This document shows, piece by piece, positions 9,970 to 64,000 of a stretch of DNA of 64,000 bases (positions are counted from its first letter, which is position 1; the number at the start of each line of letters is the position of its first letter). Under the pieces are notes generated by a model. It was given only the letters and a program-made list of their open reading frames with translations, made no database searches and was not told where the DNA came from. The DNA lies in contig CAWCIK010000006.1 in assembly GCA_963795645.1 (NCBI GenBank), forward strand, positions 1,097,523 to 1,161,522, written 5' to 3'. The stretch is from an uncultured Chloroflexia bacterium (GTDB lineage: Bacteria > Chloroflexota > Limnocylindria > Limnocylindrales > CSP1-4). The translations under genes and the position numbers were made by a program.

Positions 9970-10453
<484 letters not shown>

Positions 10454-10454
<1 letters not shown>

Positions 10455-12921: not shown

Positions 12922-13434
12922 ATGAACTGGGCGTTTCTGATCTTCTTGGTGCTTCACGTGGGCGGCGCCATCATCGCCTTCGGACCCACGTTTGCGTTTC
13001 CGATCATCGGCGGGATGGGTGGCAGTGAGCCGATGCATTCGAACTTTGGCCTGAGGCTGACCGAGCGCATCGAGATGCGCCTCGTCCTGCCCCTGGCAGT
13101 GGTCCAGGCGATCACGGGCATCGCACTGATCTGGCTGGCGCCGATAGACGTGACAAAGGCCATCTGGCTCGACGTCGCGATCGTCTTCTACGTGATCGCG
13201 TTGGCGATAGCGTTCGGTAGTCAGGTTCCGGTCATGAAGAAGCTGATCGAGGCGACGAACAACCCGCCACCTCCGCCGCCGGCCGGATCACCTCCTCCGT
13301 CCGGGCCTCCGCCGCACATCGCCCAGCTGATCCGCCGCGTACAGGTGGGCGGCATGACCCAGACCGTCCTGCTCATCCTGATCATCATCCTGATGGTCCT
13401 GGGCACGAACGGAGCACTCGGGCCGAACCTGTAA
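12922..13434 (+). CDS. DUF2269-like integral membrane protein
   Basis: The ATG at 12922 follows GGAGGG. Four predicted TM helices and a Pro-rich loop (PPPPPPAGSPPPSGPPP). Confidence 0.55.
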   Translation: MNWAFLIFLVLHVGGAIIAFGPTFAFPIIGGMGGSEPMHSNFGLRLTERIEMRLVLPLAVVQAITGIALIWLAPIDVTKAIWLDVAIVFYVIALAIAFGSQVPVMKKLIEATNNPPPPPPAGSPPPSGPPPHIAQLIRRVQVGGMTQTVLLILIIILMVLGTNGALGPNL

Positions 13435-13440
13435 CCCGCG

Positions 13441-15033: not shown

Positions 15034-15076
15034 TCCGGCCAAGCCTAGCGACCGCAGTTCCGCCGCAGCCTCACCA

Positions 15077-30239: not shown

Positions 30240-30362
30240 CGCGGTCAGGCTATCTCCATGCCGGATGTAATTTGGTCTTCGGGCGTAACGGCGGACTGAC
30301 GTCCGCGGCGCGGGCCACTATTCTTGGCCTACTTTCTCGACGATCTGTGCCCAGGGGTCCCA

Positions 30363-31520: not shown

Positions 31521-31852
31521 GCCCAGAGCTACTCAACGCGCTGGCGATCTTCTTGCTGGCGATCCTCGTCGGCTTCGAGGTCATCAGCAAGGTCCCCGCG
31601 ACACTGCATACGCCGCTGATGTCGGGCGCGAACTCGATCCATGGCATAGTCATCGTCGGCGCGATGCTCATCGCCGCAGCGGCCGACAACCCGTTCAGCT
31701 ATCTCCTCGCATTCATCGCGATGGTCTTCGGAGCGGCAAACGTCGTGGGCGGCTACGTCGTCACCGACCGCATGCTCCAGATGTTCCGCCGGCGCGAGCC
31801 GGCGAAGGCGCCAGCCGAGACGGCGAGCGCCCCTGCGGCCGAGGGGAAGTAG
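31517..31852 (+). CDS. pntAB: NAD(P) transhydrogenase subunit alpha part 2 (membrane)
   Basis: 'GFEVISKVP..LHTPLMSG.N.I.GI' motif. The GTG start overlaps the pntAA stop. Confidence 0.9.
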   Translation: MSPELLNALAIFLLAILVGFEVISKVPATLHTPLMSGANSIHGIVIVGAMLIAAAADNPFSYLLAFIAMVFGAANVVGGYVVTDRMLQMFRRREPAKAPAETASAPAAEGK

Positions 31853-31856
31853 CCCA

Positions 31857-33323
31857 ATGTCTGACCAGTGGATCTACACCCTCGTCTTCTTCTCCTGGCT
31901 GGCGGCGGCCTCGTCGTTCGTCCTCGGCCTGCACCAGATGAACAGCCCGGCCACGGCGCGCCGCGGGAACCAGCTCAGCGCGGCGGGCATGACGCTCGCA
32001 ATCGTTGTCACGTTCCTGTGGCTGCTCACGCCGGGCAACCCGATCAAGCCGGGCGGCATGGACATCACCGCCATCGCGATCATCTTCGTTGGCTTCGCGA
32101 TCGGCGGCGGCATCGGCCTGTGGCTGGCGCGTTCGGTGGCAATGACCGCGATGCCTCAGCTCGTGTCGCTCTTCAACGCTGTAGGTGGCGGCGCGGCCGC
32201 CCTGGTGGCGATCGATGACTACGTGCACATCGTCGGCTCACCGGAGCTGACAGTGTCCACGGCGGTCTTCGTCGTCCTCGGCGCGGTCATCGGCAGCGTC
32301 ACCTTCTCGGGATCCCTGATCGCCGGCGGCAAGCTCCAGGGTCTGGTGCCCGGCAAGCCCATCACCTTCCCCGGCTCGCGCATGGTCACGGCCCTCACCG
32401 CGGTGATCGCCGCCGTTGGGCTGGTGGTCCTCGTACTCGCTGCTGCGGGCACTCTGGCCATTAGCGCCGATACCCAGCTCGCTGTCCTCGGACTCGTCGT
32501 CCTCGCCGCGCTCACGTTCGGCATCACGCTGGTCCTGCCGATCGGTGGCGCGGACATGCCCGTCGTCATCTCGCTCCTGAACTCATTCACGGGCACGGCG
32601 GCGGCGATGGCCGGCTTCGTCATCGGCAACCCTGTGCTGATCATCGCCGGCGCGCTCGTGGGCGCTTCGGGCGGCATCCTGACCAAGCTCATGGCCGATG
32701 CGATGAACAGGTCGATCACCAACATCATGGTCGGCGGCTTCGGCACGGGCGATGCAGGCGCCGGCGCCGGACCCGGAGGTGCCGACGGTGGCTCGGTGCG
32801 CGAGGTCAGCCTCGACGATGCGGCCATTCAGCTTGCCTACGCCCAGAAAGTGATCATCGTGCCCGGCTACGGCCTGGCCGTGGCTCAGGCCCAGCACGCA
32901 GTGCGCGAGCTCGGCGACCTGCTCGAGCAGCGTGGCGTTGACGTCTCCTACGCCATCCATCCGGTCGCCGGACGGATGCCGGGCCACATGAACGTGCTGC
33001 TGGCCGAGGCCAACGTGCCTTATCCGCAGCTCAAGGAGATGGAGGAGATCAACCCGGAGTTCGAGCGCACCGACGTGGCGCTCGTGGTCGGCGCCAACGA
33101 CGTGACCAACCCCGCCGCCCGATCGAATCCGGCGAGCCCGATCTACGGGATGCCGATCCTGGATGTCGACCACGCCCGGTCGATCATCGTCATCAAGCGC
33201 TCGATGCGGCCCGGTTACGCGGGCATCGACAACGAGCTGTACGCCGACCCCAAGACGGGGATGCTCTTCGCCGACGCGCGCGAGGGTCTGACCCAGCTGG
33301 TCGCTGCCGTCAAGCAGCTCTAG
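31857..33323 (+). CDS. pntB: NAD(P) transhydrogenase subunit beta
   Basis: 'GGADMPVVISLLNS..G', 'YAIHPVAGRMPGHMNVLLAEA' and 'GANDV.NPAA'. Confidence 0.95.
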   Translation: MSDQWIYTLVFFSWLAAASSFVLGLHQMNSPATARRGNQLSAAGMTLAIVVTFLWLLTPGNPIKPGGMDITAIAIIFVGFAIGGGIGLWLARSVAMTAMPQLVSLFNAVGGGAAALVAIDDYVHIVGSPELTVSTAVFVVLGAVIGSVTFSGSLIAGGKLQGLVPGKPITFPGSRMVTALTAVIAAVGLVVLVLAAAGTLAISADTQLAVLGLVVLAALTFGITLVLPIGGADMPVVISLLNSFTGTAAAMAGFVIGNPVLIIAGALVGASGGILTKLMADAMNRSITNIMVGGFGTGDAGAGAGPGGADGGSVREVSLDDAAIQLAYAQKVIIVPGYGLAVAQAQHAVRELGDLLEQRGVDVSYAIHPVAGRMPGHMNVLLAEANVPYPQLKEMEEINPEFERTDVALVVGANDVTNPAARSNPASPIYGMPILDVDHARSIIVIKRSMRPGYAGIDNELYADPKTGMLFADAREGLTQLVAAVKQL

Positions 33324-41446: not shown

Positions 41447-42166
41447 TCAGAGGCCGATTACGAGCGCAACTACTGCGGCCCCGAGAAGGACGAGCGCCAT
41501 CGCCAGGAGCGAAGCGGCGGCCAGCACACGGGGCCGCTGTCCGGCCGCGAGCAGGCGCATTGCCTCGGACGTGGCCAGGGTGGTGACGACCAGCGGTCTG
41601 TTGGTGCCTGAAGTCATGGTCGGCCGGCCGTTGCGCAACACGGGCGTGCCGCACACCGTGGCGTGCTCCACGGCCGATAGCTGTTCGATGACCAGGCGCG
41701 CGGGCGTGCGGGGGTCGGGCAGGTTCTCGACTCCCTCGAGCAGGTCGGGCGGCAGGTCGCTCAACTGCCCATCGGCTTCGCGCGGGATAGCCACGAGCCC
41801 GGGTCCGATGGCCTCCTCGTCGAGGGCGATGAAGGCATCACGGGTCTCGACGCCGAACGGCACGGCCTCGCGCTCCTCGGCGATCGTTCGCCACCTTCGG
41901 GGACCGTCGCCGATGTCGATCCTCTTGCGCCGATAGACGAGAGGGCGATCGGTCTCGTCGGGAAACTCCTCGTCGCTCGACACGCGGCCCGAGACTCGGA
42001 CGTAGGTCGGCTTGCCTGCCGCCATTGCCCGCGCACTGTCGATGTCGACCGCTGGCGTGGCAGCCAGCAGGCGGCCCACCCGATAGCGGTCACCGAGGGA
42101 GCGAAGAAGGAGAAAGGCGCCGAGAAGACACGCCAGCGCGACAAGCACCAGAACGGCAACGCTCAC
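41447..42166 (-). CDS. Two-TM membrane protein, GIDE-domain-like (tentative)
   Basis: TM helices at both termini flank a ~190-aa soluble domain ('YVRVSGRVSS...PLVYRRKRI'). Family call is from memory only. Confidence 0.55.
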   Translation of the reverse strand: MSVAVLVLVALACLLGAFLLLRSLGDRYRVGRLLAATPAVDIDSARAMAAGKPTYVRVSGRVSSDEEFPDETDRPLVYRRKRIDIGDGPRRWRTIAEEREAVPFGVETRDAFIALDEEAIGPGLVAIPREADGQLSDLPPDLLEGVENLPDPRTPARLVIEQLSAVEHATVCGTPVLRNGRPTMTSGTNRPLVVTTLATSEAMRLLAAGQRPRVLAAASLLAMALVLLGAAVVALVIGL

Positions 42167-43493: not shown

Positions 43494-43577
43494 GGCCGGA
43501 GTCTAGCGCAGCCCACGTTCGGCGCGGGCGGATTGTTCTCTCGAAACCCGTGCGGACGTAGAATGGGTTCAGTTTGA

Positions 43578-43672
43578 ATATGGGACAGGGGAGCGCCACC
43601 GGGCGCTGAGAGTGCGGAAAGCCGCAGACCCTAGGAACCTGATCTGGTTCGTACCAGCGAAGGGAGTCCAGA
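43578..43672 (+). promoter_or_regulatory. TPP (THI-box) riboswitch aptamer
   Basis: 'GGGGAGCG...CGCTGAGAG...ACCCTAGGAACCTGATCTGGTTCGTACCAGCGAAGGGA' matches the conserved THI-box core. A P1-like GGAC/GTCC pairing closes the aptamer. Confidence 0.9.
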
Positions 43673-43676
43673 CGAC

Positions 43677-43705
43677 GCACCTCCGTCCCAGGATCACGGA
43701 GGCGC
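43677..43705 (+). promoter_or_regulatory. Shine-Dalgarno-sequestering hairpin (riboswitch expression platform)
   Basis: CCTCCGT (43680-43686) pairs with ACGGAGG (43696-43702). The GGAGG within it is the RBS, 8 nt upstream of the TTG start at 43711. Confidence 0.55.
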
Positions 43706-43710
43706 ATCTT

Positions 43711-44367
43711 TTGAAGGCCCTGATCGTCGCAGACGGCGACATCCCGTCGCGCGCAGCAGTCGACCGCCTGCTCGGACCCGACGGCGCCGACGTCGTCGTC
43801 GGTGCCGATGGTGGTGCAGCGAAGGCCGTGTTGCTGGGATTCACACCCGACGTCGCGGTCGGTGACCACGATTCCCTCTCACCCCGGGCCGTCGATCAGC
43901 TTCGCGCCGATGGCGTCGAGGTAATCGCGCACCCGCAGGCCAAGGACGAGAGCGACACAGAGCTGGCGCTGCGCGAGGCGATCAATCGTGGGGCGACTTC
44001 GCTCCTCGTGATCGGTGCCTTCGGCGGCCCGCGCCTGGAGCACACGATCGCCAACCTGCTGCTGCTGTCCAGCCCCGAGCTTGCCGGCCTCGACGTGTCC
44101 CTCGCCGATGGCGCGAGCGAGGTTCGCCTGCTCGACGACGGCGGGACGCTGACGCTGAACGGGCGTCGGGGCGACTACGTATCGCTCTTCCCGCTCGCGC
44201 CGGTCGTCCATGGCGTCACGACCCAAGGTCTGGCCTTCGCGCTCGTCGACGAGCCACTCAGCCAGGGACCCGCACGCGGCCTGTCCAATGAGATGACCGG
44301 CGAACGCGCTGCGGTCAGCACGCGCAACGGACGACTGCTCGTCGTCCATACGAGGCGAGACCCATGA
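43711..44367 (+). CDS. thiN: Thiamine pyrophosphokinase
   Basis: 'ALIVADGD', 'GADGGA', 'GDHDS' (GDFDS-like), 'KDESDTELAL' and 'GAFGGPRLEH' motifs. TTG start after GGAGG. Confidence 0.85.
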   Translation: MKALIVADGDIPSRAAVDRLLGPDGADVVVGADGGAAKAVLLGFTPDVAVGDHDSLSPRAVDQLRADGVEVIAHPQAKDESDTELALREAINRGATSLLVIGAFGGPRLEHTIANLLLLSSPELAGLDVSLADGASEVRLLDDGGTLTLNGRRGDYVSLFPLAPVVHGVTTQGLAFALVDEPLSQGPARGLSNEMTGERAAVSTRNGRLLVVHTRRDP

Positions 44368-45455
44368 ACCGACTCTTCCCCATCGCCACTCTGGCGCTCC
44401 TCCTTGTCGCCTGCGCCCATTCCCCGGCGATCCCGGCGGCGACCCCGGCGCCGACCGACGCTTCGCTGCCGACGGCCAGCGCCGTTGGCGAGGTGACGCT
44501 CGTGACCCACGACGCGTTCGCGGCCAGCGACCAGGTCGTAGCCGATTTCGAGACTCAATCGGGCGCGACGCTCAAGGTCCTCAAGGGCGGCGACGCCGGC
44601 ACGATGGTCAATCAGGCGATCCTGACCAGGAACCAACCGCTCGGCGATGTGCTCTACGGCGTCGACAACACATTCCTATCGCGCGCCCTCGACGCGGGCA
44701 TCTTCGCTCCCTACGCCTCGCCGGCGGCGGCGTCGATTCCGGCCGAGTTCAAGCTCGATGCGCAGGATCGAGTGACGCCGATCGACTATGGCGACGTGTG
44801 CGTCAACTACGACAAGGAGGCGTTCACCGGCTCGCTCGCCGCGCCCCAGACGATCATGGACCTGACCGATTCCGCGTATCGGGACGAGCTCGTGGTCGAG
44901 AACCCGGCGACCTCGTCACCGGGGCTTGCCTTCCTGCTGTCGACGGTCATCCGCTTCGGTGAGGCGGGCGCCTACACGTGGCTCGACTACTGGGCCGATC
45001 TGCGCGCGAATGGCGTCATGGTCGTGAACGACTGGAACGACGCCTACTACAACGAATTTTCGGGCGGCGCGGGCGCGGGCGGGCGGCCGCTGGTTGTCTC
45101 GTACGCGACCAGCCCGGCGGCCGAGGTTTACTTCGCCGACCCGCAGCCGAACGAGTCGCCGACGGGCAACGTCGACGATGGCTGCTTCCGCCAGATCGAG
45201 TTTGCCGCCGTGCTGGCAGGAGCAAAGAATTCGACCGGCGCGCAGGCGTGGGTCGACTACATGGCATCGACCGAGTTCCAGTCGGACATGCCGCTCAACA
45301 TGTTCGTCTTCCCGACGAACCCCGCTGCGGAGGTGACCGACCTGTTCACCAGGTTCCCGGCCAAGGCGACCAATCCGCTGACGATGGACCCGGCCACGAT
45401 CGCTGCCAATCGTGACCGCTGGATCCAGGAGTGGACGGACACGGTGCTCCACTGA
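44364..45455 (+). CDS. thiB: Thiamine ABC transporter substrate-binding lipoprotein
   Basis: Lipobox 'LLLVAC|A'. A family-1 SBP pattern resembling TbpA/ThiB. Lies downstream of the TPP riboswitch. ATGA overlap with thiN. Confidence 0.75.
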   Translation: MNRLFPIATLALLLVACAHSPAIPAATPAPTDASLPTASAVGEVTLVTHDAFAASDQVVADFETQSGATLKVLKGGDAGTMVNQAILTRNQPLGDVLYGVDNTFLSRALDAGIFAPYASPAAASIPAEFKLDAQDRVTPIDYGDVCVNYDKEAFTGSLAAPQTIMDLTDSAYRDELVVENPATSSPGLAFLLSTVIRFGEAGAYTWLDYWADLRANGVMVVNDWNDAYYNEFSGGAGAGGRPLVVSYATSPAAEVYFADPQPNESPTGNVDDGCFRQIEFAAVLAGAKNSTGAQAWVDYMASTEFQSDMPLNMFVFPTNPAAEVTDLFTRFPAKATNPLTMDPATIAANRDRWIQEWTDTVLH

Positions 45456-45474
45456 GCGATTGGCGTTGCCGCCG

Positions 45475-47109
45475 ATGAGGCCCGGGCGACTGGTCACGCC
45501 GCTGATGGCAGCTTTGCCGCTCGCCTTCCTGGGCGTGTTCTTCGTCTACCCGGTCGTCTCGATCCTTGCGCTGGGGTTGGCGCCCGGAGGCGACCTGGAC
45601 ATTGCTTCTGCCCTGGCCGTGCTCGGCCAGCCGTTCGTGCTCCAGGTCGCGTGGTTCACTTTGTGGCAGGCGGCCCTGTCGACCCTGCTGACCGTGCTCA
45701 TCGCGCTGCCCGGTGCGTACGTTTTCGCGCGCTACGACTTTCCCGGCCGGCGGCTGATCAGCGCGCTGGCCATCATCCCTTTCGTCTTGCCGACGGTCGT
45801 CGTCGCGGCCGCCTTCCTGGCGCTGTTCGGTTCGCGCAGCCCGTTCGGCATCCGCCTCGATCACACGATCGTGGCCATCCTTGCCGCGAACGTCTTCTAC
45901 AACTACGCGGTAGTGCTGCGCGTGGTGGGTGGAGTCTGGCGCCAGATGGATCCGCGCCTGGAGGACGCCGCACGAGTGCTGGGTGCGTCGCGCTGGCAGG
46001 CTTTCAGGCGCGTGACGCTGCCGCTCCTCGCGCCGGTCATCGCGTCTGCCGCGTCGGTCGTCTTCCTGTTCACGTTCACCAGCTTCGGCGTGATCCTGCT
46101 CCTGGGCGGTGCGCAGTTCTCCACTCTCGAGGTTGAGATCTACCGCCAGACCGCCGAGCTGCTCGACCTGCGCACCGCCGCCGTGCTCTCCCTGGTCCAG
46201 ATGGCCGGCCTGGCGCTGTTGCTGTTCGTCTATTCGCGCTATCAGCAGCGGAGCGCGGTCCAGCAGCGGCTGCTTACGCACGGCGACAGCGCGCGTCGTC
46301 CGCGAACGAGACGCGAACGCTCGCTCGTGGCGGCAAACCTCGGGGTCATGGCGATCCTGCTCGGGCTGCCGCTGCTCGTCCTGGTCGAGCGCTCGCTGGC
46401 CGGCCCTGGCGGATACGGGGTGCAGAACTTTCAGGCGCTGTTTGCCTCGAGCCAGCGCTCGGCCCTGTTCGTGCCGCCGATCGAGGCAGTCCGGAACTCG
46501 CTCGCCTTTGCCCTGATCGCGACGCTGATCTGTGCGCCACTCGGCCTGATGGCCGCGTTGGTCATCGCGCGTGGCACGGGACGAATGTCAAGCGGCTTCG
46601 ACGCGCTGCTGATGCTGCCGCTGGGCACATCCGCGGTGATCATCGGCTTCGGCTTTCTCGTCGCCCTGGGCAATCTGCCGGTCGACCTCCGGACGTCGGT
46701 CATCCTGATCCCGATCGCGCACGCGATCGTCGCCCTGCCCCTGCTGGTTCGTGCGACCGTGCCTGTCCTGCGTTCAGTGGACGAGAGGCTGCGCGACGCC
46801 GCGCGCGTGCTCGGTGCCTCGCCCGCGCGCGTGTGGCGCGAGATCGACCTGCCCATCGTCAGGCGCGCGGCGCTGGTCGGCGCCGGTTTCGTCTTCGCCG
46901 TCTCGCTCGGCGAGTTCGGGGCAACCCTGTTCATCGTTCGTCCCGACGCCCCGACGATGCCCGTCGCGATCTACCGCCTGCTCAGCCAGCCGGGCGTGCT
47001 TGCCTTCGGCCAGGCGATGGCCATGGCCGTGCTGCTGATGGCCGTCACCGGGGCCAGCGTGCTGGCATTCGATGGCCTGCAGGGCGGGCAGGTCAGGTCG
47101 GACGCCTGA
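45475..47109 (+). CDS. thiP: ABC transporter permease, duplicated (ThiP/FbpB-like)
   Basis: Two tandem permease modules, each with an EAA-like loop ('EDAARVLGAS.WQ.F..V.LP' and 'RDAARVLGASP...W..I.LP'). Confidence 0.8.
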   Translation: MRPGRLVTPLMAALPLAFLGVFFVYPVVSILALGLAPGGDLDIASALAVLGQPFVLQVAWFTLWQAALSTLLTVLIALPGAYVFARYDFPGRRLISALAIIPFVLPTVVVAAAFLALFGSRSPFGIRLDHTIVAILAANVFYNYAVVLRVVGGVWRQMDPRLEDAARVLGASRWQAFRRVTLPLLAPVIASAASVVFLFTFTSFGVILLLGGAQFSTLEVEIYRQTAELLDLRTAAVLSLVQMAGLALLLFVYSRYQQRSAVQQRLLTHGDSARRPRTRRERSLVAANLGVMAILLGLPLLVLVERSLAGPGGYGVQNFQALFASSQRSALFVPPIEAVRNSLAFALIATLICAPLGLMAALVIARGTGRMSSGFDALLMLPLGTSAVIIGFGFLVALGNLPVDLRTSVILIPIAHAIVALPLLVRATVPVLRSVDERLRDAARVLGASPARVWREIDLPIVRRAALVGAGFVFAVSLGEFGATLFIVRPDAPTMPVAIYRLLSQPGVLAFGQAMAMAVLLMAVTGASVLAFDGLQGGQVRSDA

Positions 47110-51676: not shown

Positions 51677-51774
51677 GAGTGTGGCCGTGCCCGGTGCTGT
51701 CGTCTACGGAACGATCGGGTTAGGAATGCCGAGCCAGGCGGCGACAATTCGCTGCGTGTCAGAGTCGGCTGCCG

Positions 51775-53685
51775 ATGCTACGATCGTCTCGGTGGCGTCC
51801 GAGCACAGCCTGCCCCACGAGGTCTGACCTTTTGGCCATCGATCCCAACCAGGAATTTCTGGTTCAGCCTGTCGACGCCTCCTGGCTCCAGTGCAATATC
51901 GAGTGTCAGGAAGCGTGTCCCGTCGGCACCAACTGCCGCGGCTATCTGAACCTGGCCGCTGAAGGCCGCTTCGAGGAGGGTTACATCCTCGCGCGCGAGC
52001 CGAACCCGGTGGCGGCGATGTGCGCCTATGTCTGCTCCGCGCCGTGCGAACGAGCCTGCCGACGCGGTGATATCGACCGGCCCTTGTCGATCCGGGCCAT
52101 GAAGCGCTTCCTGACCGAGTGGCACCAGGCATCGGGCATTCCCGACGACATGCCCCAGATCACGCCGCGCGACACCAAGGTTGCGGTCGTTGGGGCCGGA
52201 CCTGCCGGAATCTCCGTCGCGCGCGAGCTGGCCGTGGCCGGCCACCAGGTGACCGTCTTCGACGAGCTGCCCTATGGCGGCGGCACGATGCTCATTGGCG
52301 TCCCTGCCTTCCGCCTCCCGCGCGAAGCAATCGACATGGACCTCAAGCTCGTCGAGCGCCTGGGCGTCCGCTTCCGGTTCGGTGTGCGCATCGGCCGCGA
52401 CATCACTTTTGAAGAGCTCATGGAGCAGTACGACTCGGTCGCGATCTGTGCCGGGGCCATGAACGCTGTTCCGCTAGACGTCCCCGGCGGTGACCTGGAA
52501 GGCATCCAGTACGGCGTCGACTACATGAAGAAGGCCAACCTGGGCGAGCCGCTCGAGGTCGGCAACAACGTCGTCATCGTCGGCGGTGGCTACACCGCGA
52601 TGGACTGCTCGCGAACGTCGTTGCGCTACGGCGCTGAGAACGTGACCATCGCCTATCGCCGTACCCGCTCCGAGCTCGTCGTCGACGAGGAAGAGCTGGG
52701 CGAGACCGAGCGCGAAGGCGTGAGCATGGAGTTCCTGGTCAGCCCGGTCGAGGTTCTTGGCGACGACAAGGGACGCGTGCGCGCGGTCAGGTTCATCCGC
52801 AATCGACTCGGTGAGCCTGATGCGACCGGCCGCCGCGCACCGGTGCCGATAGACGGCAGCGAGTTCGAGATCGCGGCCGACACGGTCATCCCCGCCGTCA
52901 GCCAGGCCGCGGACAACACGTTCCTGCCGGTCGAGTCGAGCTTCGAGGTCAATCGAGGCCGTGTCCGAGTGGATCCGGGCACGTACGCGACCAACGTCCG
53001 CGGTGTCTTCGCGTGCGGCGACTTCGTAACCGGGCCGACGACGCTCATCGAAGCGGCCGGGCACGGCAAGAAGTGCGCCTACGCGATCGACCGCTACCTG
53101 TCCGGGCGACGCGAGGTCGACGTCGATGCCAACGTGCGCATCGTCAGCTCGACGCGTCACGAGATGCCCGACTTCTACGACGTCCTGCCGCGCGTCCACG
53201 TCCCCATGGCAGCCGTCGCCGCGCGCTTCCCATCGACCGAGCCGAAGGTCAACTTCACCACACCGGTCGAGATGGGTTACAGCGCGCAGCAGGCGATCAC
53301 CGAAGGCACGCGCTGCCTCATGTGCAACTACAACATCTGGTTCGACCCGTTCCGCTGCGTGCTGTGCGGCGCTTGCGCGGATGTCTGCCCAGAAGGCGTC
53401 ATCCACATGATCGACATCAACCAGATGAAATCGGAGGGCCCGCTGCCCGAGCTGGTCGACGCCTACGGCTGGTCCGACGGGGCCGCGATGGTGCTCGACG
53501 AGGAGCGTTGCATCCGCTGCGCGTTGTGTGTCAAACGGTGCCCGTACGACGCTATTACCATGGACCGGTTCGAGCTCCAGGAGATCAGCAGCGACGGCCG
53601 GCTCTACAAGGAGAGCTACCGGGATACCCAGTTGGGGCTTGCTGGTGTCGGTAACCAAGCCGATGCGGGAGGTTGGATTCGTTGA
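51775..53685 (+). CDS. GltD/NfnB-like NAD(P)H-dependent flavo-iron-sulfur oxidoreductase with C-terminal 2x[4Fe-4S] ferredoxin domain
   Basis: N-terminal Cys clusters ('[15 protein letters not shown]', '[13 protein letters not shown]'). Two dinucleotide folds ('[10 protein letters not shown]', '[13 protein letters not shown]'). 'ACGD' motif. C-terminal '[12 protein letters not shown]' and '[12 protein letters not shown]'. A TTG at 51832 is an alternative start. Confidence 0.85.
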
Positions 53686-54410
53686 GCTTTCTTGAGCGTG
53701 TAGACGTGGCCGTGAGACGCAGCGCCGTCTTCCGGTCGCTCTTCCGCCAGCCGTATCCGACGGACGAGCGGTCGCGTGCCTACGCGGTCATGAACAACGT
53801 GTTCCTGCACCTCCACCCGGTGCGCGTCAGGCAGCACGCTGTCAAGTTCGCGTACACCTTCTGCCTCGGTGGCCTGTCGTTCTTCTTCTTCCTCGTGCTG
53901 ACCGTGACCGGCGTCTTCCTGATGTTCTTCTACGTGCCGTCCTCGACGTCCGCGTACGACGACATCCTGCGCATCCAGGCGGAAGTGCCGTTCGGGCTGC
54001 TGACGAGGAACATCCATCGCTGGGCCGCGCACCTGATGGTCTTCTTCGTCTTCCTGCACATGATGCGGGTCTTCTACCACGGGGCCTACAAGCCGCCGCG
54101 CGAGTTCAACTGGGTTGTCGGCGTGCTGCTGCTGTTCTTCACCGTGGCCCTGTCGTTCACGGGCTACCTGCTGCCCTGGGATCAGATCGCGTTCTGGGCG
54201 GTCACGATCGGCAACAACATCGCCTCGTACGTGCCTCTCCTGTCGAAGCCCTCACAGCTGCTCATCTTCGGCGGCATCGAAGTCAGCCAGAACACGCTCT
54301 TACGCTTCTATGTCCTGCACGTGATCCTCTTACCGCTCACTGCGGCTATCTTCCTCGCCGTTCACTTCTGGAGGATCCGGAAGGACGGCGGCATCAGTGG
54401 ACCGCTCTAG
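53673..54410 (+). CDS. Cytochrome b6-type (N-terminal four-helix half of cytochrome b)
   Basis: '[22 protein letters not shown]' and '[34 protein letters not shown]' haem-ligand helices (14-residue His spacing in helix D), plus 'FCLGG'. Overlaps the upstream gene by 13 nt. Confidence 0.92.
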
Positions 54411-55055
54411 ATGACACAAGACAAGTCCCGACTTCCGGCTCCCACTGCACCAGCGGAGCCCGCCGCTCCCAAGCGCACCGCGCTGCCCGCCGCCCCGCCC
54501 GAGCGACGGACGACGGAGATCGACAAGCAGCGCGTGCCCATGGCTGCCAAGCCATATCGGCTGCTGGCGCTCGTCAAGCAGGATGCTGTTGTCCGCGTCC
54601 AGAAGGAGCCTGACGACACGGTCATGACCTGGCCGCACCTGCTCTCGATCGAGTTCTTCGCGGCGGCAATGATGAGCATCTTCCTGCTCCTGATGGGCGT
54701 GTTCATCAACGCGCCGCTGGAAGAGCTGGCCAATCCGAACACGACGCCCGTTGTGGCCAAGGCGCCGTGGTACCTCGTTGGCATCCAGGAGCTCCTCGCC
54801 TACTTCCACCCCGTGGTGGCGGGCGTGCTGTCCATCGCGTACATAATCGTCGGCCTGATAGTCATCCCGTATATCGACCGCGGACCGCAGGGCGATGGCG
54901 GGTCGCCGCGACCGAGCAACCGCAAGCTGGGCATCATCCTGTTCACGATGTTTGCCGCATCCGGCCTGGTGATCACGTTCATGGGCGCCTTCTTCCGCGG
55001 TCCCGGGTACAACTACATCCTGCCGTGGCAGGACGGACTCTTCTTCGCTCTTTAA
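54411..55055 (+). CDS. Cytochrome b subunit IV-type (C-terminal half of cytochrome b)
   Basis: Three TM helices and a Qo-loop 'KAPWYLVGIQELL' that corresponds to the PEWY region. The ATG directly follows the upstream TAG. Confidence 0.85.
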   Translation: MTQDKSRLPAPTAPAEPAAPKRTALPAAPPERRTTEIDKQRVPMAAKPYRLLALVKQDAVVRVQKEPDDTVMTWPHLLSIEFFAAAMMSIFLLLMGVFINAPLEELANPNTTPVVAKAPWYLVGIQELLAYFHPVVAGVLSIAYIIVGLIVIPYIDRGPQGDGGSPRPSNRKLGIILFTMFAASGLVITFMGAFFRGPGYNYILPWQDGLFFAL

Positions 55056-55070
55056 TGGGGGCTGCGTGAC

Positions 55071-55739
55071 ATGGGCAATTGGAAATTGGCCCGCTGGCAA
55101 GAACCACAGACACTCACTCGTGACGTGCTGCGCGAGATGCGCAAGGGCCGGCCGGCCGGGATGTCCCGACGGACGCTCATCCGCCGCTCGATCGGCGCTG
55201 GTGTGGCTCTATGGCTTCTGGAAGTGACCGGCGGCATGCTCGGATTCCTGTGGCCGAACCTGTCGAAGGGTTTCGGTGGCCAGATCGAGCTCGGCGACGA
55301 GGCGACCGTCGCGGGCAACCCGGCGGTTCAGGGCGTGACCCTGTCCGACGGCGCACCGGCGTACTACTCCCAGGCGCGCACCTACGTCCAGCTGATCGAC
55401 TACGAGCGAGGCTTCAGCGACGGCGTCAGCGTCGACGGCAGCGGTGCCGACACCAATGTGCGCACGATCTACCAGCGCTGCCCGCACCTGGGCTGCAAGC
55501 CCAACTTCTGTACCAGCAACTACTGGTTCGAGTGCCCCTGTCACGGCTCGCGCTATGACCGCCTGGGCACCAAGATCAAGGAGCTCGGACCCGCGCCGCG
55601 GAGCATGGATCGCTTCGCGCACAAGGTGGCCTCAGGAGTGCTGACCGTCGACACGTCCAAGATCACTCTCGGCCCGCTGCCCGTCGCCCTGGGACAGCCC
55701 GGCCTGATTCCGGCCCGCTCCCCGCAAGGCTGCATATGA
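55071..55739 (+). CDS. Rieske [2Fe-2S] protein
   Basis: Twin-arginine N-terminus 'SRRTLIRRSIGAG' and the cluster boxes 'CPHLGC' and 'CPCHGS'. Confidence 0.92.
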   Translation: MGNWKLARWQEPQTLTRDVLREMRKGRPAGMSRRTLIRRSIGAGVALWLLEVTGGMLGFLWPNLSKGFGGQIELGDEATVAGNPAVQGVTLSDGAPAYYSQARTYVQLIDYERGFSDGVSVDGSGADTNVRTIYQRCPHLGCKPNFCTSNYWFECPCHGSRYDRLGTKIKELGPAPRSMDRFAHKVASGVLTVDTSKITLGPLPVALGQPGLIPARSPQGCI

Positions 55740-57028
55740 CGGACGAGCGCACCGGCCGCGAGCTGACGCCCCGCTCCGAGGAGCCGGATTCCGCGGTAAC
55801 GCCGCGCGAACCGGCTGTTCCGGCGCCCGGCTCGCAGGCGGTCGAGCGCTTCTCTGGCGGCACCCGAGCCCACACCGTCGGGCTTACGGAAGAGCGCGCC
55901 ACGAAGATCGTCAAGCAGAGCGGCAACGCGCGCATGATCGCGTTCCTGGGCGCGCTCTTCCTCGTCCTGTTCATTCCCATCTACTGGCTGTACGACATCG
56001 GGCTGCCGGTCGTCGGCGTCGAGGGGCGCCTGGCCAACGAGGCTCAGCAACAGCAGGTGACGGACATCTCGCGCGGCTATGCGCTCTTCCTGGCCAACTG
56101 CGCGCGCTGCCACGGCGCCAACGGCGAGGGTCTTGTCGGCCCGGCACTCAACGATCAGGCCAAGCTGTACAACACGATCACCGCGGCCGGCGCCGCGGGA
56201 CCCGGTCATCTCAACCCCAACTATCTGCAGACGGTCCTCCAGGTTGGCGGCCGCTACGTATGCGGCGATCCGAACAGCGTTATGCCCATCTGGGAGCAAC
56301 CGAACGGGCCGCTCAACTATCGCCAGATCCAGGAGATAATCGACTGGATCACGGCCAGCAGCGACATCTCGTTCACCTACCAGCCGGCCGTCGCCGAGGG
56401 CAATGCCGGCGCCACGGCACCACCGGCGGTCACGATCCATGGCTGGCGTGACCCGACCTACACGCCGGCGCCCGGCGCCACACCTGTGCCGGCCTGCTGG
56501 CGCGGCGACAACACCGGCTCCGGGTCGGCTCAGGCAACGCTCGCGCCGGTCACGAGTCCGGGTACGGCCGAACATCCGCGCGAGATCGACGTCGAGGGCA
56601 CCGACCAGCTCAAGTGGGTCGACCCGGCTACCGGCCAGCAGATCACCCAGCTCGCGGTCGTGGCCGGCGAGGTGATCGAATTCAAGGTCGACGTAAACAG
56701 CTCCACAGCGCACAACTTCCACCTCGGGCCGGCCGGCAATCTGGCCACGGCACCCGAGCACAACGATCTGCCCGGCCTGGACACGTTCGCCAACTCGACC
56801 GAGACCTTCCTGTACACGGTGCCGCCGGCCCTGACATCCGATGCGCAGTTTGCGTGCACGGTGCCCGGCCACTACCAGTCGGGCATGCACGTCGACCTGA
56901 TCGCGCAGGACTCGTCTACCGAGCCTGGATCGCCGGCGCCTTCGGCAGCTCCGGATGCATCGGCTGCCCCGGCGGAGTCGGCCGCGTCGTCCGCGGCACC
57001 ATCACCGTCAGCGGCGCCTTCGCAGTAG
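55736..57028 (+). CDS. Membrane-anchored monohaem cytochrome c fused to a type-1 copper (auracyanin/plastocyanin-like) cupredoxin domain
   Basis: TM helix 'MIAFLGALFLVLFIPIYWLY'. One 'CARCH' haem site with a distal 'VMPIW' Met. C-terminal 'AHNFH' and 'CTVPGHYQSGM' copper ligands. ATGA overlap with the Rieske gene. Confidence 0.85.
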   Translation: MTDERTGRELTPRSEEPDSAVTPREPAVPAPGSQAVERFSGGTRAHTVGLTEERATKIVKQSGNARMIAFLGALFLVLFIPIYWLYDIGLPVVGVEGRLANEAQQQQVTDISRGYALFLANCARCHGANGEGLVGPALNDQAKLYNTITAAGAAGPGHLNPNYLQTVLQVGGRYVCGDPNSVMPIWEQPNGPLNYRQIQEIIDWITASSDISFTYQPAVAEGNAGATAPPAVTIHGWRDPTYTPAPGATPVPACWRGDNTGSGSAQATLAPVTSPGTAEHPREIDVEGTDQLKWVDPATGQQITQLAVVAGEVIEFKVDVNSSTAHNFHLGPAGNLATAPEHNDLPGLDTFANSTETFLYTVPPALTSDAQFACTVPGHYQSGMHVDLIAQDSSTEPGSPAPSAAPDASAAPAESAASSAAPSPSAAPSQ

Positions 57029-58516
57029 ATGGCTGAGTACGCACTTCCGCCCGGAGCCGTCCGCCGCCGCGCAGTCTTCGGGCTGCTCGACGCCGATGGT
57101 TGGACATGGGCGACGATCAAGGCCACGTTCTGGTTCGTGTTCATCATCTTCGTGCTCGGCTACGTGCCGGACCGCGCCTACTACTTCACCGTTCTGCCGA
57201 CGCTCGACCTGGGCTTCAACGCCATCTCGCCGGTCAACATGTGCTCGGCCGACAACAAGACGCTGCCGTGTCCCGCCCCGGCTGGCGCCGTCATCCCGTG
57301 GGAGTCCAGCCCCACAGAGCTCGACCTTCCCCAGGGCCGCACGGGGGCAGGTTCGTTCATTTCGGGCACGAACGTCTACCTGATCGGCGGCTCGACCGGA
57401 GGCGCAGCCACAGCCAGCGTCCTGGCCACGACCTCCGACAACGGCACGATCAATCCATGGCAGGACGGCCCTGCGCTCCCTGACCCCAGGTCGGGCGCTG
57501 TGACTCTCACGCTGGCGGGCACGCCCTATGTGATCGGAGGCAGCGACGCGTCCGGCAACCCGACCTCGACCGTGTTCGTGGGCACGGTGGACCAGGGCGC
57601 GCTGACCGGCTGGGCGGACGCAGGCATCACGCTGCCGATCCCCCTCACCGACGCCACCGGCGTCGCGACTGCGACCGGCGTCTATGTCTTCGGCGGCCAG
57701 ACCACGGGCGACACGCTCTCCGCCGCTACGTACAACGCCGTGATCCCCGAAGGACAGACCAAGCTCGGCGCGTTCACGGACATGACTGAGATCCCGCTGC
57801 CGGAGGCACGCGCCGGAGCGGCCGCGGTCTCGGCCGGCATCTCGGTCTTCGTCATGGGCGGCCAGGGCCCCGACGGCGTGTCCAACTCCGTCTTCTATCT
57901 GAAGCTCGACTCGCACGGCAATCCGGCGGTCAACACCGACTCGGGCAGGCCGTTCGGCTGGGGCGTGTCGGTCAACGAGTCCGCGTCGGCGGCGCTGCCA
58001 GAACCACGTCAGCATCAGACGAGCTTCGGCAACGGCGGCGCGCTCTACGTCATTGGCGGCCAGGACGCGAACGGGGTGGCCGTGAGCACCAACTACTGGA
58101 CCGTCCCGAACCCCTCCAACGGCCTGATCAGTGGCTGGCAGAGTCTCGACGTCACCGACCTGCCCGATCCACAAGCCGGATCCGCATCGGCCATCAGTGG
58201 CACGACCGTCTTCCTCATCGGTGGCACTGGCGCCGACGGCACGGATCTGACGTCCGTGCTGCGCGCGGATCTCGCCCCGCGACTGCCGTTCTTCCGGCTG
58301 GGCCTTTTCGGCGTGACCGTTCCCGCACTCTCGATCCAGGGCGAGATCGGCCAGCAGCTGGGCTACATCGTGGCCGGCAGTGCCGGCGCCGGCGGGCTCA
58401 TCTTCCTGATCCTGATCGGCTGGGCCTTCTCACACCGCCGCCAGACGTTCCACTTCTTCCAGTGGATGAGCCGCGGCCGCTTCCGGGCACCTCCAGACGA
58501 CGAGTACGGCGTCTAA
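57029..58516 (+). CDS. Kelch-repeat (six-bladed beta-propeller) protein with N- and C-terminal TM helices
   Basis: Six 'hyd-hyd-GG' blade signatures (VYLIGGS, PYVIGGS, VYVFGGQ, VFVMGGQ, LYVIGGQ, VFLIGGT). TM segments near both ends. The ATG directly follows the upstream TAG. Confidence 0.8.
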   Translation: MAEYALPPGAVRRRAVFGLLDADGWTWATIKATFWFVFIIFVLGYVPDRAYYFTVLPTLDLGFNAISPVNMCSADNKTLPCPAPAGAVIPWESSPTELDLPQGRTGAGSFISGTNVYLIGGSTGGAATASVLATTSDNGTINPWQDGPALPDPRSGAVTLTLAGTPYVIGGSDASGNPTSTVFVGTVDQGALTGWADAGITLPIPLTDATGVATATGVYVFGGQTTGDTLSAATYNAVIPEGQTKLGAFTDMTEIPLPEARAGAAAVSAGISVFVMGGQGPDGVSNSVFYLKLDSHGNPAVNTDSGRPFGWGVSVNESASAALPEPRQHQTSFGNGGALYVIGGQDANGVAVSTNYWTVPNPSNGLISGWQSLDVTDLPDPQAGSASAISGTTVFLIGGTGADGTDLTSVLRADLAPRLPFFRLGLFGVTVPALSIQGEIGQQLGYIVAGSAGAGGLIFLILIGWAFSHRRQTFHFFQWMSRGRFRAPPDDEYGV

Positions 58517-58678: not shown

Positions 58679-58710
58679 GAATGTCGGTCACACCGACATT
58701 CGTCCGTTTT
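58679..58710 (+). terminator. Rho-independent terminator-like hairpin
   Basis: A perfect 10-bp stem, GAATGTCGGT/ACCGACATTC, with a CAC loop, followed by CGTCCGTTTTGGGGG. Confidence 0.55.
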
Positions 58711-62397: not shown

Positions 62398-63222
62398 ATG
62401 ACGCTCGCGACACTCGCCATCGTTCTGACGGCGGCGTTCATCCACGCCCTGTGGAACCTGATCGTCGTCGCCTCGCGCGACCGAACCGCGACAACGACGG
62501 TCGTGATCATCTTCGGCGCGCTTCTCTTCGTGCCCCTTGCGGTCGTGCGCTGGAACGTTCAGGCAGAGGCGTGGCCGTACATCGCACTCTCGTCAGCGCT
62601 GGAGCTCGTCTATTTCGCGCTGCTCGTGTCTGCATATCACCGCGCGGATCTGAGCACGGTCTACCCCATCGCCCGCGGCTCGGCGCCGGTGCTCGTCCTG
62701 GCACTGGCCGTGGCCTTTACCGGCGCGCCAACGTCCGCTGCGCAGATCGCAGGCGTCGCCCTTGTCGGTGCCGGAGTCTTCGTCGTGCGCGGCATCCGCG
62801 GCGGCACGCACTGGCGCCACGTGGCATTGGCGCTGGGCGTCGCGCTGGCGATAGCGGCTTACGTCGTGGTCGACAGCCAGGGCGTCAAATATGCCGACCC
62901 GATCACCTACGGCGTGCTCATCCTGGGCATCCCCGGCATCGTCGCGAGTGCCTTCGTCATCGTCCGTGGCGGCGCCGGCCGCCTCGCCGCGGCCTTCAAC
63001 TGGCGCAGCGCGCTGGGCGGCTTCTTCTCGATGGGCGCCTATGCCCTCGTCCTGATCGCCCTGACGACCACGCCGGCCGCGGCCGTCGACGCGGTTCGAG
63101 AGTCGAGCGTCGTCTTCGCCGCCTTCCTTGGCGCAGTCGTACTCAAGGAAAAGTCGGGGCCTGAGCGGGTGGTCGGCTCCATAATCGTGCTCCTTGGTGT
63201 CGTCCTCGTAGTCTTGGGCTGA
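62398..63222 (+). CDS. EamA/DMT-like membrane transporter
   Basis: ~9-10 TM helices and 'YPIARGSAPV' and 'RESSVVFAA..G' patterns. Confidence 0.7.
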   Translation: MTLATLAIVLTAAFIHALWNLIVVASRDRTATTTVVIIFGALLFVPLAVVRWNVQAEAWPYIALSSALELVYFALLVSAYHRADLSTVYPIARGSAPVLVLALAVAFTGAPTSAAQIAGVALVGAGVFVVRGIRGGTHWRHVALALGVALAIAAYVVVDSQGVKYADPITYGVLILGIPGIVASAFVIVRGGAGRLAAAFNWRSALGGFFSMGAYALVLIALTTTPAAAVDAVRESSVVFAAFLGAVVLKEKSGPERVVGSIIVLLGVVLVVLG

Positions 63223-63235
63223 TGGAGGGCAACGC

Positions 63236-64000
63236 GTGAAGTTCGGCGGCGTGTTCTGGATGCAGGGTGCGCAGTGGCCTGCCCTGCGCGAGGCATGGCT
63301 AGCGGCCGGCAGGGCGGGTTTCGACTCCCTCTGGACCGAGGACCACCTGCTGGCCGACGCCGGTGACTGGCGCCAGCCAAAGTTCGAAGGCTGGGCCGCG
63401 TTGGCTGCGCTCGCGCCACTGACGGAGACGTCGCGCGTGGGCGTGCTGGTCACGGCCGTGGCGTTCCGCAATCCGGGACATGTTGCCAAGCTCGCCACGA
63501 CGCTCGACCACATCACGGACGGCCGGCTGGTGCTGGGCATGGGCGGCGGCCACTTCCAGCGCGAGCACGAGGCGTTCGGCTTCGACTTCGGCGTGACGCC
63601 TGGGGCGCGCCTGGATCGGCTGGATGAATCGCTCGGGTTGATCCGGCGGCTGCTCGACGGCGAACTCGTCACACACCATGGCCGCTACTACGACTTCGTG
63701 GATGCGCTTTGCGAGCCGCGCCCAATCCAGGCGCACGTGCCTTTCATGATCGGTGGCTCCGGGCCAAAGAAGACGATGGGTATCGTGGCGCGCCACGCCG
63801 ACGAGTGGAACAAGTCGGGTGGCTCACCGGAGGTCGTAGCCGAGTCGCTCGCCAACCTGCGCACGCGTTGCGACGAGCTCGGCCGCGACTACGCCTCGAT
63901 CAAGAAGACGGCGATGGTCTGGCTCCATCTGCGCGACAGTCGGGAAGAGGCGATGGCAGCGCATAACGCGATCCGCGTCGCGGCGGGTATGCCGCTTGCA
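63236..64000 (+). CDS. LLM-class (probably F420-dependent) oxidoreductase, 3'-truncated by the window edge
   Basis: The GTG at 63236 follows GGAGGG. 'FDSLWTEDHL', 'FRNPGHVAKLATTLDHI..GRL.LGMG.G' and 'GGSGPKKT..IVARHADEWN' motifs. The open frame runs to the window end. Confidence 0.8.
   Translation, partial: MKFGGVFWMQGAQWPALREAWLAAGRAGFDSLWTEDHLLADAGDWRQPKFEGWAALAALAPLTETSRVGVLVTAVAFRNPGHVAKLATTLDHITDGRLVLGMGGGHFQREHEAFGFDFGVTPGARLDRLDESLGLIRRLLDGELVTHHGRYYDFVDALCEPRPIQAHVPFMIGGSGPKKTMGIVARHADEWNKSGGSPEVVAESLANLRTRCDELGRDYASIKKTAMVWLHLRDSREEAMAAHNAIRVAAGMPLA

Follow-up and report, generated by a model that had tools for sequence, protein, structure and literature searches.

Rieske/cytochrome b complexes bifurcate the two electrons of a quinol at the quinol oxidation (Qo) site, where one passes to the Rieske cluster and the other to haem bp. 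Ever since the anammox genomes it has been asked whether the low-potential electron of the Q cycle may, in such complexes, be diverted to NAD(P)+, which would be a third outcome of quinone-based bifurcation, beside proton pumping and reverse electron flow. The matter is not yet settled; anammox bacteria are difficult to cultivate, and the complexes that they make contain numerous additional haems. An NAD(P)H-generating function for the anammox complexes was reportedly proposed by Kartal et al. in 2013. Expression of the Kuenenia stuttgartiensis complexes (Kuste4569-4574 and Kustd1480-1485) and co-migration of all subunits are credited to de Almeida (2016) in later papers (PMC12954380, PMC5600118), and Rieske potentials and AlphaFold 3 (AF3) models have since been published (Hauser et al., 2025; PMC12954380). 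Here we analyse a six-gene operon (positions 51832-58516) in a 64-kb stretch of DNA, hereafter the window, from a soil-type member of the Limnocylindria (Chloroflexota). It appears to encode a b6c-type Rieske/cytochrome b complex ('subfamily G / APWY') with an extra NADP(H)-FAD subunit carrying four [4Fe-4S] clusters and, by inference from the anammox proposal, we suggest with slightly less than even confidence that this complex catalyses quinol-driven NADP+ reduction.

The window cytochrome b may be placed in 'subfamily G' on the basis of shared motifs and homology to the members cited there. As in other members of this group and in the 'APWY clade', it is a short b6-type protein with a separate subunit IV (SUIV) carrying an APWY Qo motif, and it is accompanied by a Rieske protein of predicted mid-to-high potential. 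The group has a wide and patchy spread that includes Chloroflexi, Planctomycetes and Nitrospinae (PMC5600118, PMC4122944). Kao and Hunte (2014) defined the APWY clade as uncharacterised and with Chloroflexi included (PMC4122944), and Dibrova et al. (2013, 2017) reported that cytochrome b of subfamily G is found together, 'in many other cases', with oxidoreductases that are large, rich in Cys and bind NAD(P) (PMC5600118). Neither set of papers describes the Limnocylindria or a cytochrome c-cupredoxin/Kelch module, and our literature search found no paper on the Limnocylindria version or on a cytochrome c-auracyanin/Kelch module. The operon thus specifies a new member, with a distinct periplasmic module, of a kind of complex already in the literature (Dibrova et al., 2013, 2017; Hauser et al., 2025; reportedly also Kartal et al., 2013), and the novelty attributed to it in the original prediction, which was made from the sequence alone, was overstated. 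That prediction had restricted comparable gene clusters to anammox planctomycetes and some nitrite oxidisers, which is too narrow in view of the co-occurrences listed by Dibrova et al. (PMC5600118). It had also held that coupling of quinol oxidation to NAD(P)+ reduction has never been shown biochemically; this stands for the activity, but all subunits are reported to co-migrate in Kuenenia (as cited in PMC12954380).

Operon organization

The six genes are co-directional on the + strand in the predicted order of flavoprotein, cytochrome b6, SUIV, Rieske protein, cytochrome c-cupredoxin and Kelch protein (Table 1), the open reading frames (ORFs) being present at the coordinates originally given, and Pfam bore out the domain calls for the six products, weakly so for the cupredoxin domain (see below), and including Fer4_20, Pyr_redox_2 and Fer4 in the flavoprotein. 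Families were assigned with Pfam and NCBIfam, transmembrane (TM) helices and topology by hydropathy analysis, and start codons from Shine-Dalgarno sequences and homolog lengths. The cluster would begin at 51775 if the longest ORF were taken, but the flavoprotein most likely starts at TTG 51832, because GAGG lies 9 nt upstream, homologs are 616-617 aa long and the ortholog on a 1-Mb contig (L001), which carries the same six-gene cluster at 89% identity, is called at 617 aa. For b6 the likeliest start is TTG 53682, which has GGGAGG at a distance of 9 nt on its 5' side and leaves an overlap of 4 nt (TTGA) with the stop of the flavoprotein gene, an arrangement in which the two genes appear to be translationally coupled. 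The remaining junctions (0, 15, -4 and 0 nt) are as predicted, and only the first overlap, originally given as 13 nt, changes with the revised b6 start.

We found no sigma-70-like promoter and no convincing terminator inside the cluster, the junction of flavoprotein and b6 included, in agreement with the single unit envisaged originally. Within b6 there is a hairpin of 5 bp, but such hairpins are no more frequent than chance would give (6 seen versus 3.5 ± 1.7 expected), and it was rejected as an internal terminator. The sole strong + strand hairpin with a T-run lies 3' of the Kelch gene and probably marks the end of the transcription unit. The six genes can be regarded as one operon because they are joined by 4-nt overlaps or 0-15 nt gaps, are uninterrupted by a terminator and are followed by this hairpin. 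The operon promoter presumably lies in the intergenic region shared with a divergent minus-strand gene; no sigma-70 consensus match was found there, that consensus being uninformative for Chloroflexota.

Homology to the anammox complexes

Sequence comparison indicates that the operon products are directly homologous to the Kuste4569-4574-type set. Relative to the proteins of an anammox-type locus (L082), recovered with a 67-aa stretch of Kuste4569 taken from a PDB alignment, identity is 37% for the flavoprotein (full length, E 7e-125), 49% for cytochrome b and 41% for SUIV. As in the anammox complexes, b6 and SUIV are split and carry the CxGG haem-cn Cys and AKAPWY, the Rieske protein is exported by the twin-arginine translocation (TAT) pathway and has CPCHGS with the Ser/Tyr pair, and a cytoplasmic flavoprotein of ~600 aa with an NfnABC-like core and FwdF-like dicluster tail is encoded within the operon. 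The systems differ in host (a high-GC, probably aerobic member of the Chloroflexota versus anammox bacteria), in gene order (flavoprotein first versus Rieske first) and at the flavoprotein N-terminus, where the window protein has 8/8 Cys and the L082/Kuenenia type is without two of them; one cluster of the Kuenenia flavoprotein has been modelled as [3Fe-4S] (PMC12954380). They differ also in the periplasm, where the operon encodes a monohaem cytochrome c with an auracyanin-like copper domain and a Kelch protein. One CxxCH and one type-1 copper domain thus take the place of the hexa/octahaem cytochromes, and of the HAO-like protein, that belong to the anammox complexes. We treat this difference as a variant and not as an exclusion because the periplasmic partner is the least conserved subunit of bc complexes.

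The cytochrome b6 has four His haem-b ligands, in invariant alignment columns and with b6-type spacing, and, in FCLGG, the Cys for a covalent haem cn (ci). Its alignment with the b6 of spinach and Chlamydomonas extends over their full length and takes in both Cys35, which belongs to the haem-cn motif CxGG, and the RK(D/Q)GISGPL found at the C-terminus of chloroplast b6. Its N-terminus is ~26 residues longer than in photosynthetic b6 and carries the motif FRSLFR...NVFLHLHP. SUIV has the Qo motif AKAPWY, three TM helices and a Pro/Ala-rich N-terminal extension of ~75 aa, and the extended N-termini of both proteins are predicted to be cytoplasmic. In the Rieske protein a twin-arginine signal (SRRTLI) and a single TM helix are accompanied by the cluster-binding boxes CPHLGC...CPCHGSRY, the latter with the Ser and Tyr that predict a high potential. 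Its two best PDB matches are both from Kuenenia, 9rk3 (Kustd1480) and 9rk4 (Kuste4569), for which potentials of +335 mV and +303 mV, respectively, have been measured (PMC12954380).

The b6 protein also scores over the NCBIfam equivalog cut-off for ExtP (NF040969; 296 versus 290). The Geobacter extHIJKLMNOPQS cluster comprises multihaem ExtM/N/S, the porin ExtI and the rhodanese ExtH, with no flavoprotein (PMC5877670). We rejected an ExtP/ExtQ label since no Ext partner is present and the similarity is generic within the b6 subfamily; automated annotation would probably mislabel this protein and its many relatives as ExtP.

An Nfn-type flavoprotein with four predicted clusters

The flavoprotein has an NfnB/GltD-type core with eight N-terminal Cys (two [4Fe-4S] clusters) and an RCLMC motif, followed by a C-terminal dicluster domain of two CxxCxxCxxxCP motifs, and is matched by Fer4_20 (E 3e-17), Pyr_redox_2 (E 2e-30) and two Fer4 motifs in Pfam. 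Hydropathy analysis revealed neither a TM helix nor a signal peptide, and a cytoplasmic location is predicted. The relevant PDB entries were matched by sequence at E 1e-110. The nearest solved relatives are large subunits of NfnABC and StnABC, with scores of 374 bits for NfnABC 9bov/9bp5, 367 for 9n5u and 314 for 8oh5, compared with 286 and 283 bits for NfnB (4ylf and 5jca) and 218 for GltD (2vdc); the tail matches the polyferredoxin FwdF (5t5i). A residue-level alignment with these NfnB, NfnABC and StnC modules showed that all eight N-terminal Cys are held in common, that the dinucleotide-site stretch GGGxTAMDxxRTxxRxGAxxVTxxYRRT is kept and that RCLxC is positioned after the flavin domain, as it is in NfnABC/StnC. 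We take this stretch to be the NADPH site from general knowledge of NfnB, and a preference for NADP over NAD is likewise presumed. Unlike the Nfn modules, the flavoprotein has neither an NfnA-type [2Fe-2S]/FAD partner nor a formate-dehydrogenase-like domain. None of the 36 window ORFs scanned with Pfam is NfnA-like or resembles a 2-oxoacid:ferredoxin oxidoreductase (OFOR), and an NfnAB/NfnABC transhydrogenase was rejected despite the similar core, there being no NfnA-like gene in the cluster or its flanks.

GltD belongs to the same fold family and provides a linear wire of NADPH, FAD and two [4Fe-4S] clusters. Members of the GltD family are about 450-490 aa long without extra domains and are partnered with GltB. 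The window flavoprotein differs in having ~130 extra C-terminal residues with two more clusters, and bc-complex genes as its neighbours. It falls below both GltD cut-offs of NCBIfam (TIGR01318, 279 versus 483; TIGR01317, 215 versus 448) and a rough map of the window's ORFs, the largest of which has 798 aa, showed none of the size of GltB. We therefore rejected a bona fide GltD, in accordance with the original description of the protein as GltD/NfnB-like, and on these comparisons it appears to be nearer to the Nfn-type modules. Such flavoproteins should accordingly be annotated neither as "glutamate synthase small subunit" nor as "formate dehydrogenase beta subunit".

Judged from the range of its homologs, the flavoprotein is most readily understood as a mobile adaptor between Fe-S clusters and NAD(P), one that some lineages within the b6 subfamily may have added to their complexes. 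A scan of ten extended relatives, some with N-terminal TM helices, revealed no (0/10) 'Rosetta-stone' fusion to cytochrome b or Rieske domains. At a single annotated proteobacterial locus (L071; Bradyrhizobium betae chromosome, 9986-14654; related loci L046, L052 and L057-L080), a homolog of ~600 aa, 32% identical to the window flavoprotein by tblastn and 35% to the scan seed P0131, is followed by POR/KOR-type OFOR subunits, suggesting a 2-oxoacid:NAD(P)+ oxidoreductase with the same adaptor.

Conservation of the linkage

Named homologs at 82-91% identity are from metagenome-assembled genomes (MAGs) of Chloroflexota / Candidatus Limnocylindrales, and the cluster is kept in 8/8 Limnocylindria loci examined. 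A wider flavoprotein scan, seeded with a diverse alignment to avoid saturation by Limnocylindria, returned at least 80 loci in which linkage was checked by tblastn. The flavoprotein adjoins b6 and SUIV in 24/80 listed loci, with a Rieske match in 21 of those 24; this frequency, like the 4/80 and 1/18 given below, describes a sample biased by its seed sequence and not a census. Gene order in Limnocylindria at 78-80% and at 52% identity is flavoprotein-b6-SUIV-Rieske-cytochrome c; in Acidobacteriota, Eisenbacteria and Zixibacteria it is flavoprotein-Rieske-b6-SUIV, and in Nitrospinota Rieske-b6-SUIV-pentahaem cytochrome c-flavoprotein. The anammox-type locus has Rieske, flavoprotein, cytochrome b, SUIV, multihaem cytochrome c and HAO-like genes. 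The adjacency is thus conserved in relatives, in Limnocylindria and five other phyla, as the original prediction would have it, which is far beyond what chance would produce; that it has persisted in six phyla while the genes took three different orders argues strongly, by comparison, that the partners function together. A reverse scan of metagenomes, seeded with b6, returned at least 80 loci, 18 of them with at least 4 kb on both sides, and added at least four metagenome loci with flavoprotein-linked b6.

All linked clusters have in common AKAPWY, CPCHGS and the b6 N-terminal motif W(K/R)S(I/L)FR...NVFLHLHP with its invariant His. (A/S)KAPWY and the N-terminal motif are also present in unlinked loci with 7-8 kb of flank and no flavoprotein, and were withdrawn as signatures of linkage; both the APWY motif and the N-terminal His are subfamily traits. 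By spacing, this His corresponds to Kuste4571 His43 and Kustd1481 His62, which on the basis of AF3 models have been put forward as ligands of an additional haem b between the monomers (PMC12954380). His43 is present in the window b6, with a spacing to the C-terminal RK motif that fits after a 14-aa deletion, and as noted the His occurs in unlinked b6 too.

Limnocylindria, Nitrospinota and L082 have the haem-cn Cys, whereas Acidobacteriota and Eisenbacteria have Tyr at this position (YLG[FST]) and Zixibacteria have Gly, and in four loci b6 and SUIV are fused into one ORF (L004, L008, L010 and L038 for the b6-SUIV region; L009, L011, L021-L023, L027, L028 and L034). Since several linked lineages have replaced the Cys, haem cn is unnecessary for flavoprotein linkage. 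At one locus from a long-read MAG (L039, ~11257-13153) the flavoprotein match stops early and b6 enters SUIV via an apparent frameshift, both of which are probably assembly indel errors and not biology.

Proposed electron flow and alternatives

GltD passes both electrons of NADPH down a linear Fe-S wire, and NfnB is able to bifurcate thanks to the second arm provided by NfnA. In the proposed complex, menaquinol, assumed to be the quinol from general knowledge of the Chloroflexota, would be oxidized at the Qo site. The first electron would pass to the high-potential Rieske cluster and on to the membrane-anchored cytochrome c and auracyanin-like copper, and from there to a terminal oxidase. The second, strongly reducing electron would cross the membrane via haems bp and bn (and cn), and some or all of these low-potential electrons would bypass quinone re-reduction at the quinone reduction (Qi) site and leave instead via the four-cluster wire to FAD, where two of them would reduce NADP+ to NADPH. 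Bifurcation would then be the ordinary quinone-based kind at Qo. The flavoprotein would serve as a linear, GltD-style wire, as expected because no NfnA-like second arm is encoded, and the flavin-based bifurcation raised in the original prediction is not needed; for the 'supercomplex' that it envisaged we found no evidence. With a Rieske potential of ~+300 mV and menaquinol at ~-70 mV, the second electron can reach the -320 mV needed for NADP+ (arithmetic in PMC12954380). We favour quinol-driven NADP+ reduction because of these energetics, because the OFOR-linked proteobacterial homolog would, by analogy, take low-potential electrons to NAD(P)+, and because the window encodes the proton-translocating transhydrogenase PntAB, whose presence suggests that NADPH is in demand and not in surplus.

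A number of points weigh against this proposal. The enzymatic activity of all members, flow direction included, has so far only been inferred, and an aerobic heterotroph with PntAB and, presumably, ordinary dehydrogenases has no obvious need for reverse electron flow. Where L082 has the Arg of CGRC, a residue in contact with the extra haem of the AF3 model for Kuenenia, the window protein has Ala (CGAC). In the b6-seeded scan a flavoprotein is near b6 in only 4/80 listed loci and 1/18 well-flanked ones, and no b6 feature was found that separates flavoprotein-linked from unlinked members. The linked flavoproteins formed one clade in 0/200 bootstraps of a neighbour-joining tree of this star-like family, in which deep nodes are unresolved, compared with 200/200 for Limnocylindria and 153/200 for Acidobacteriota, Eisenbacteria and Zixibacteria together. 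A single origin of the linked flavoproteins is unsupported by this tree, leaving one ancient flavoprotein-b6 partnership unproven. Finally, the analysis covers the 64-kb window, and the quinone type and any other complex III of the host lie outside its reach.

Because the wire is reversible in principle, the structural evidence would serve equally for the same complex running in the opposite direction, which we regard as the main rival, though an unlikely one. The flavoprotein would be its input, with electrons passing from NADPH through FAD and the four clusters to haem bn/cn and to quinone at Qi. Such a complex would be an NAD(P)H:quinone or NAD(P)H:cytochrome c/copper oxidoreductase, operating perhaps via a Q cycle and analogous to FNR on chloroplast b6f during cyclic flow. 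From NADPH (-320 mV) to menaquinone (-70 mV) is the downhill direction and the host appears to be an aerobic heterotroph; the haem-cn Cys is retained in the window, and in the Kuenenia model haem cn looks quinone-accessible (PMC12954380). Flow in this direction would, however, waste the ~250 mV that complex I conserves (as argued in PMC12954380), and it offers no rationale for the uniformly high-potential Rieske signature in probable menaquinone users. It is also at odds with the expenditure of proton-motive force on NADPH by PntAB, NADPH that would then be burned in respiration, and with the OFOR-linked homolog, which seems to work toward NAD(P)+ reduction.

The complex might instead be a bidirectional redox valve with no dedicated metabolic role, in which the NADP pool and the low-potential chain would be brought into equilibrium by the flavoprotein, but we think this very unlikely. 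It would drain haems bn/cn when the quinone pool is over-reduced, limiting the lifetime of the semiquinone and the formation of reactive oxygen species (ROS) in an aerobe whose driving force at Qo is very strong, and feed electrons in when the pool is oxidized. Such a valve would make sense of the very reducing semiquinone expected from a high-potential Rieske protein and a low-potential quinone in an O2-exposed organism, and of the patchy linkage within the b6 subfamily, which is as expected of an optional accessory; a peroxiredoxin gene 2 kb upstream of the operon, in the window and in L001, is a weak hint in the same direction. The design is shared, however, by strictly anaerobic anammox bacteria (L082; PMC12954380), and without kinetics a valve is hard to tell from either directional model.

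The least probable reading is that the flavoprotein is not a subunit at all but a soluble NADPH:ferredoxin/acceptor oxidoreductase or GltD-like partner merely co-transcribed with the bc genes, for although its module family serves OFOR in proteobacteria and formate-dehydrogenase-like or hydrogenase-like fusions elsewhere, most b6 genes in the b6-seeded sample are without a flavoprotein nearby and the ten extended relatives include no cytochrome b fusion, it is contradicted by the 4-nt translational-coupling overlap with b6, the linkage kept through three gene orders in six phyla, the rough window ORF map with no gltB, nfnA or OFOR gene, the scores under the GltD family cut-offs and the co-migration with the complex in Kuenenia (as cited in PMC12954380 and PMC5600118).

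If quinol-driven NADP+ reduction is the function, it is possible, if rather doubtful, that in aerobic soil and freshwater bacteria (Limnocylindria, Terriglobia and others) the complex acts as a respiratory NADPH generator with O2 as the final sink via cytochrome c/auracyanin. Cells living on quinone-level donors such as trace H2/CO or starvation substrates would then be able to make biosynthetic and antioxidant reductant without reverse flow through complex I, and a mechanism so far proposed only for anammox bacteria would be generalized. The core design is found also in Acidobacteriota, Nitrospinota, Zixibacteria and Eisenbacteria, so that its relevance reaches some of the most abundant soil lineages. 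The Limnocylindria version, with one haem and one copper, is simpler in the periplasm and would be a simpler system for biochemistry; the carrier lineages presumably include cultivated species.

Periplasmic module

The fifth protein of the operon has a single CxxCH (CARCH, residue 122), one anchor TM helix at 67-85 and a C-terminal domain for which Pfam support is weak (SoxE, E 0.007; sulfocyanin/CopI-like). Candidate copper ligands are the conserved His of an HN motif (AHNFH, residue 326 by counting), Cys364, His369 and Met374, with the spacing Cys364-x4-His369-x4-Met374, and the set His...Cys-x2-4-His-x3-4-Met is kept in the L001, L006 and L039 orthologs. The best match in a profile search was auracyanin A of Chloroflexus (2aan, E 7e-9), which has the same loop CTVPGHY...M, and azurin, rusticyanin and plastocyanin were also matched. 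The ligand set conserved in the orthologs together with the auracyanin A match confirms, at the level of sequence, the auracyanin-like type-1 cupredoxin domain that had been predicted for this protein. Auracyanin serves alternative complex III (ACIII) in Chloroflexus and sulfocyanin (SoxE) serves the SoxM Rieske/cytochrome b supercomplex in Sulfolobus. The operon resembles both in the use of a type-1 copper protein as high-potential acceptor of a quinol-oxidizing complex. It differs in that copper domain and monohaem cytochrome c are parts of one protein, whose gene belongs to a Rieske/cytochrome b operon and is not associated with ACIII.

Both ends of the Kelch protein carry a TM helix, and the propeller is predicted to be periplasmic; the protein may serve in assembly or be a further subunit on the periplasmic side. 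Orthologs lie 3' of the cytochrome c gene in L001 (15212-16699), L006 and L039 but not in other lineages, and co-encoding with bc genes at 0-nt spacing is confined to the window's Limnocylindria lineage. Among the loci compared, the combination of monohaem cytochrome c, copper domain and Kelch protein is likewise restricted to this lineage. A second Limnocylindria lineage has a dihaem cytochrome c, and cytochromes with 4-8 haems are the periplasmic partners in Acidobacteriota, Eisenbacteria, Zixibacteria, Nitrospinota and anammox bacteria (multihaem partners in L082, L002, L004, L009, L028 and L038).

One acidobacterial locus (L009) has a separate cupredoxin gene upstream of its cluster. Clusters of Acidobacteriota and Eisenbacteria share two upstream genes (L004, 8168-9466; L009, 7519-9918; L011, 7726-9929; L028, 8030-9978). 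The first encodes 430-575 aa with one CxxCH, no Pfam match and an N-terminal 'IPAF(A/S)R(K/R)YG/Q...C..CH'; the second encodes ~195 aa and in L009 matches plastocyanin/azurin-type copper-binding and CarboxypepD_reg domains. Both products are possible further periplasmic partners.

Genomic context

Table 1. Features located in the 64-kb window, in order of position; empty cells, nothing reported.
Feature	Coordinates	Strand	Basis or remark
Uricase	830-1759		
Malate synthase	6252-7955		
Xanthine-dehydrogenase-type molybdopterin subunit	10454-12850		
Amidohydrolases	13441-15042, 16631-17953		
PntAB	30324-33323	+	PntA (AlaDh_PNT N and C domains), 111-aa ORF, PntB (593 bits)
Pfam-less ORF, 692 aa	33370-35448	+	directly after pntB
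Pfam-less ORF	41447-42166	-	
Thiamine pyrophosphate (TPP) riboswitch	43577-43682	+	Rfam RF00059, 72 bits versus cut-off 54
Solute-binding protein/permease ABC transporter set	~43612-47109		riboswitch directly ahead
Pfam-less ORF, 381 aa	50531-51676	-	divergent from the operon
Divergent intergenic region upstream of operon	51677-51831	.	GAGG ribosome-binding site at 51819-51822
NADP(H)-FAD iron-sulfur flavoprotein, 617 aa	51832-53685	+	Pfam, NCBIfam and PDB matches, hydropathy
Cytochrome b6, 242 aa	53682-54410 (longest ORF from 53673)	+	Pfam Cytochrome_B, E 6e-48
SUIV, 214 aa	54411-55055	+	Pfam Cytochrom_B_C, hydropathy
Rieske [2Fe-2S] protein, 222 aa	55071-55739	+	Pfam, motifs, PDB matches
Monohaem cytochrome c and type-1 copper domain fusion	55736-57028	+	Pfam, ligands, profile search
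Kelch beta-propeller protein, 495 aa	57029-58516	+	Pfam Kelch, E 1e-18; PDB Kelch matches
Terminator-like hairpin	58679-58701	+	10-bp stem, T-rich tail, ~160 nt past the Kelch stop
Pfam-less ORF	62593-63672	-	

GC content is uniformly 65-69% across the window. The genes between 830 and 17953 probably form a purine-catabolism and glyoxylate neighbourhood. The presence of uricase supports an aerobic lifestyle because this enzyme needs O2, and the gene content fits an aerobic heterotroph as host. PntAB would represent a second membrane-linked route to NADPH in the same neighbourhood as the operon.

In the syntenic region of L001, genes for a solute-binding protein, a permease and an ATPase come after one for thiamine pyrophosphokinase, so the transporter genes behind the TPP riboswitch probably form an operon for the uptake of thiamine. 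The four ORFs of the window without a Pfam match all have a coding-like GC content at third codon positions (GC3), and the L001 counterpart of the one divergent from the operon encodes 436 aa, likewise with no Pfam match.

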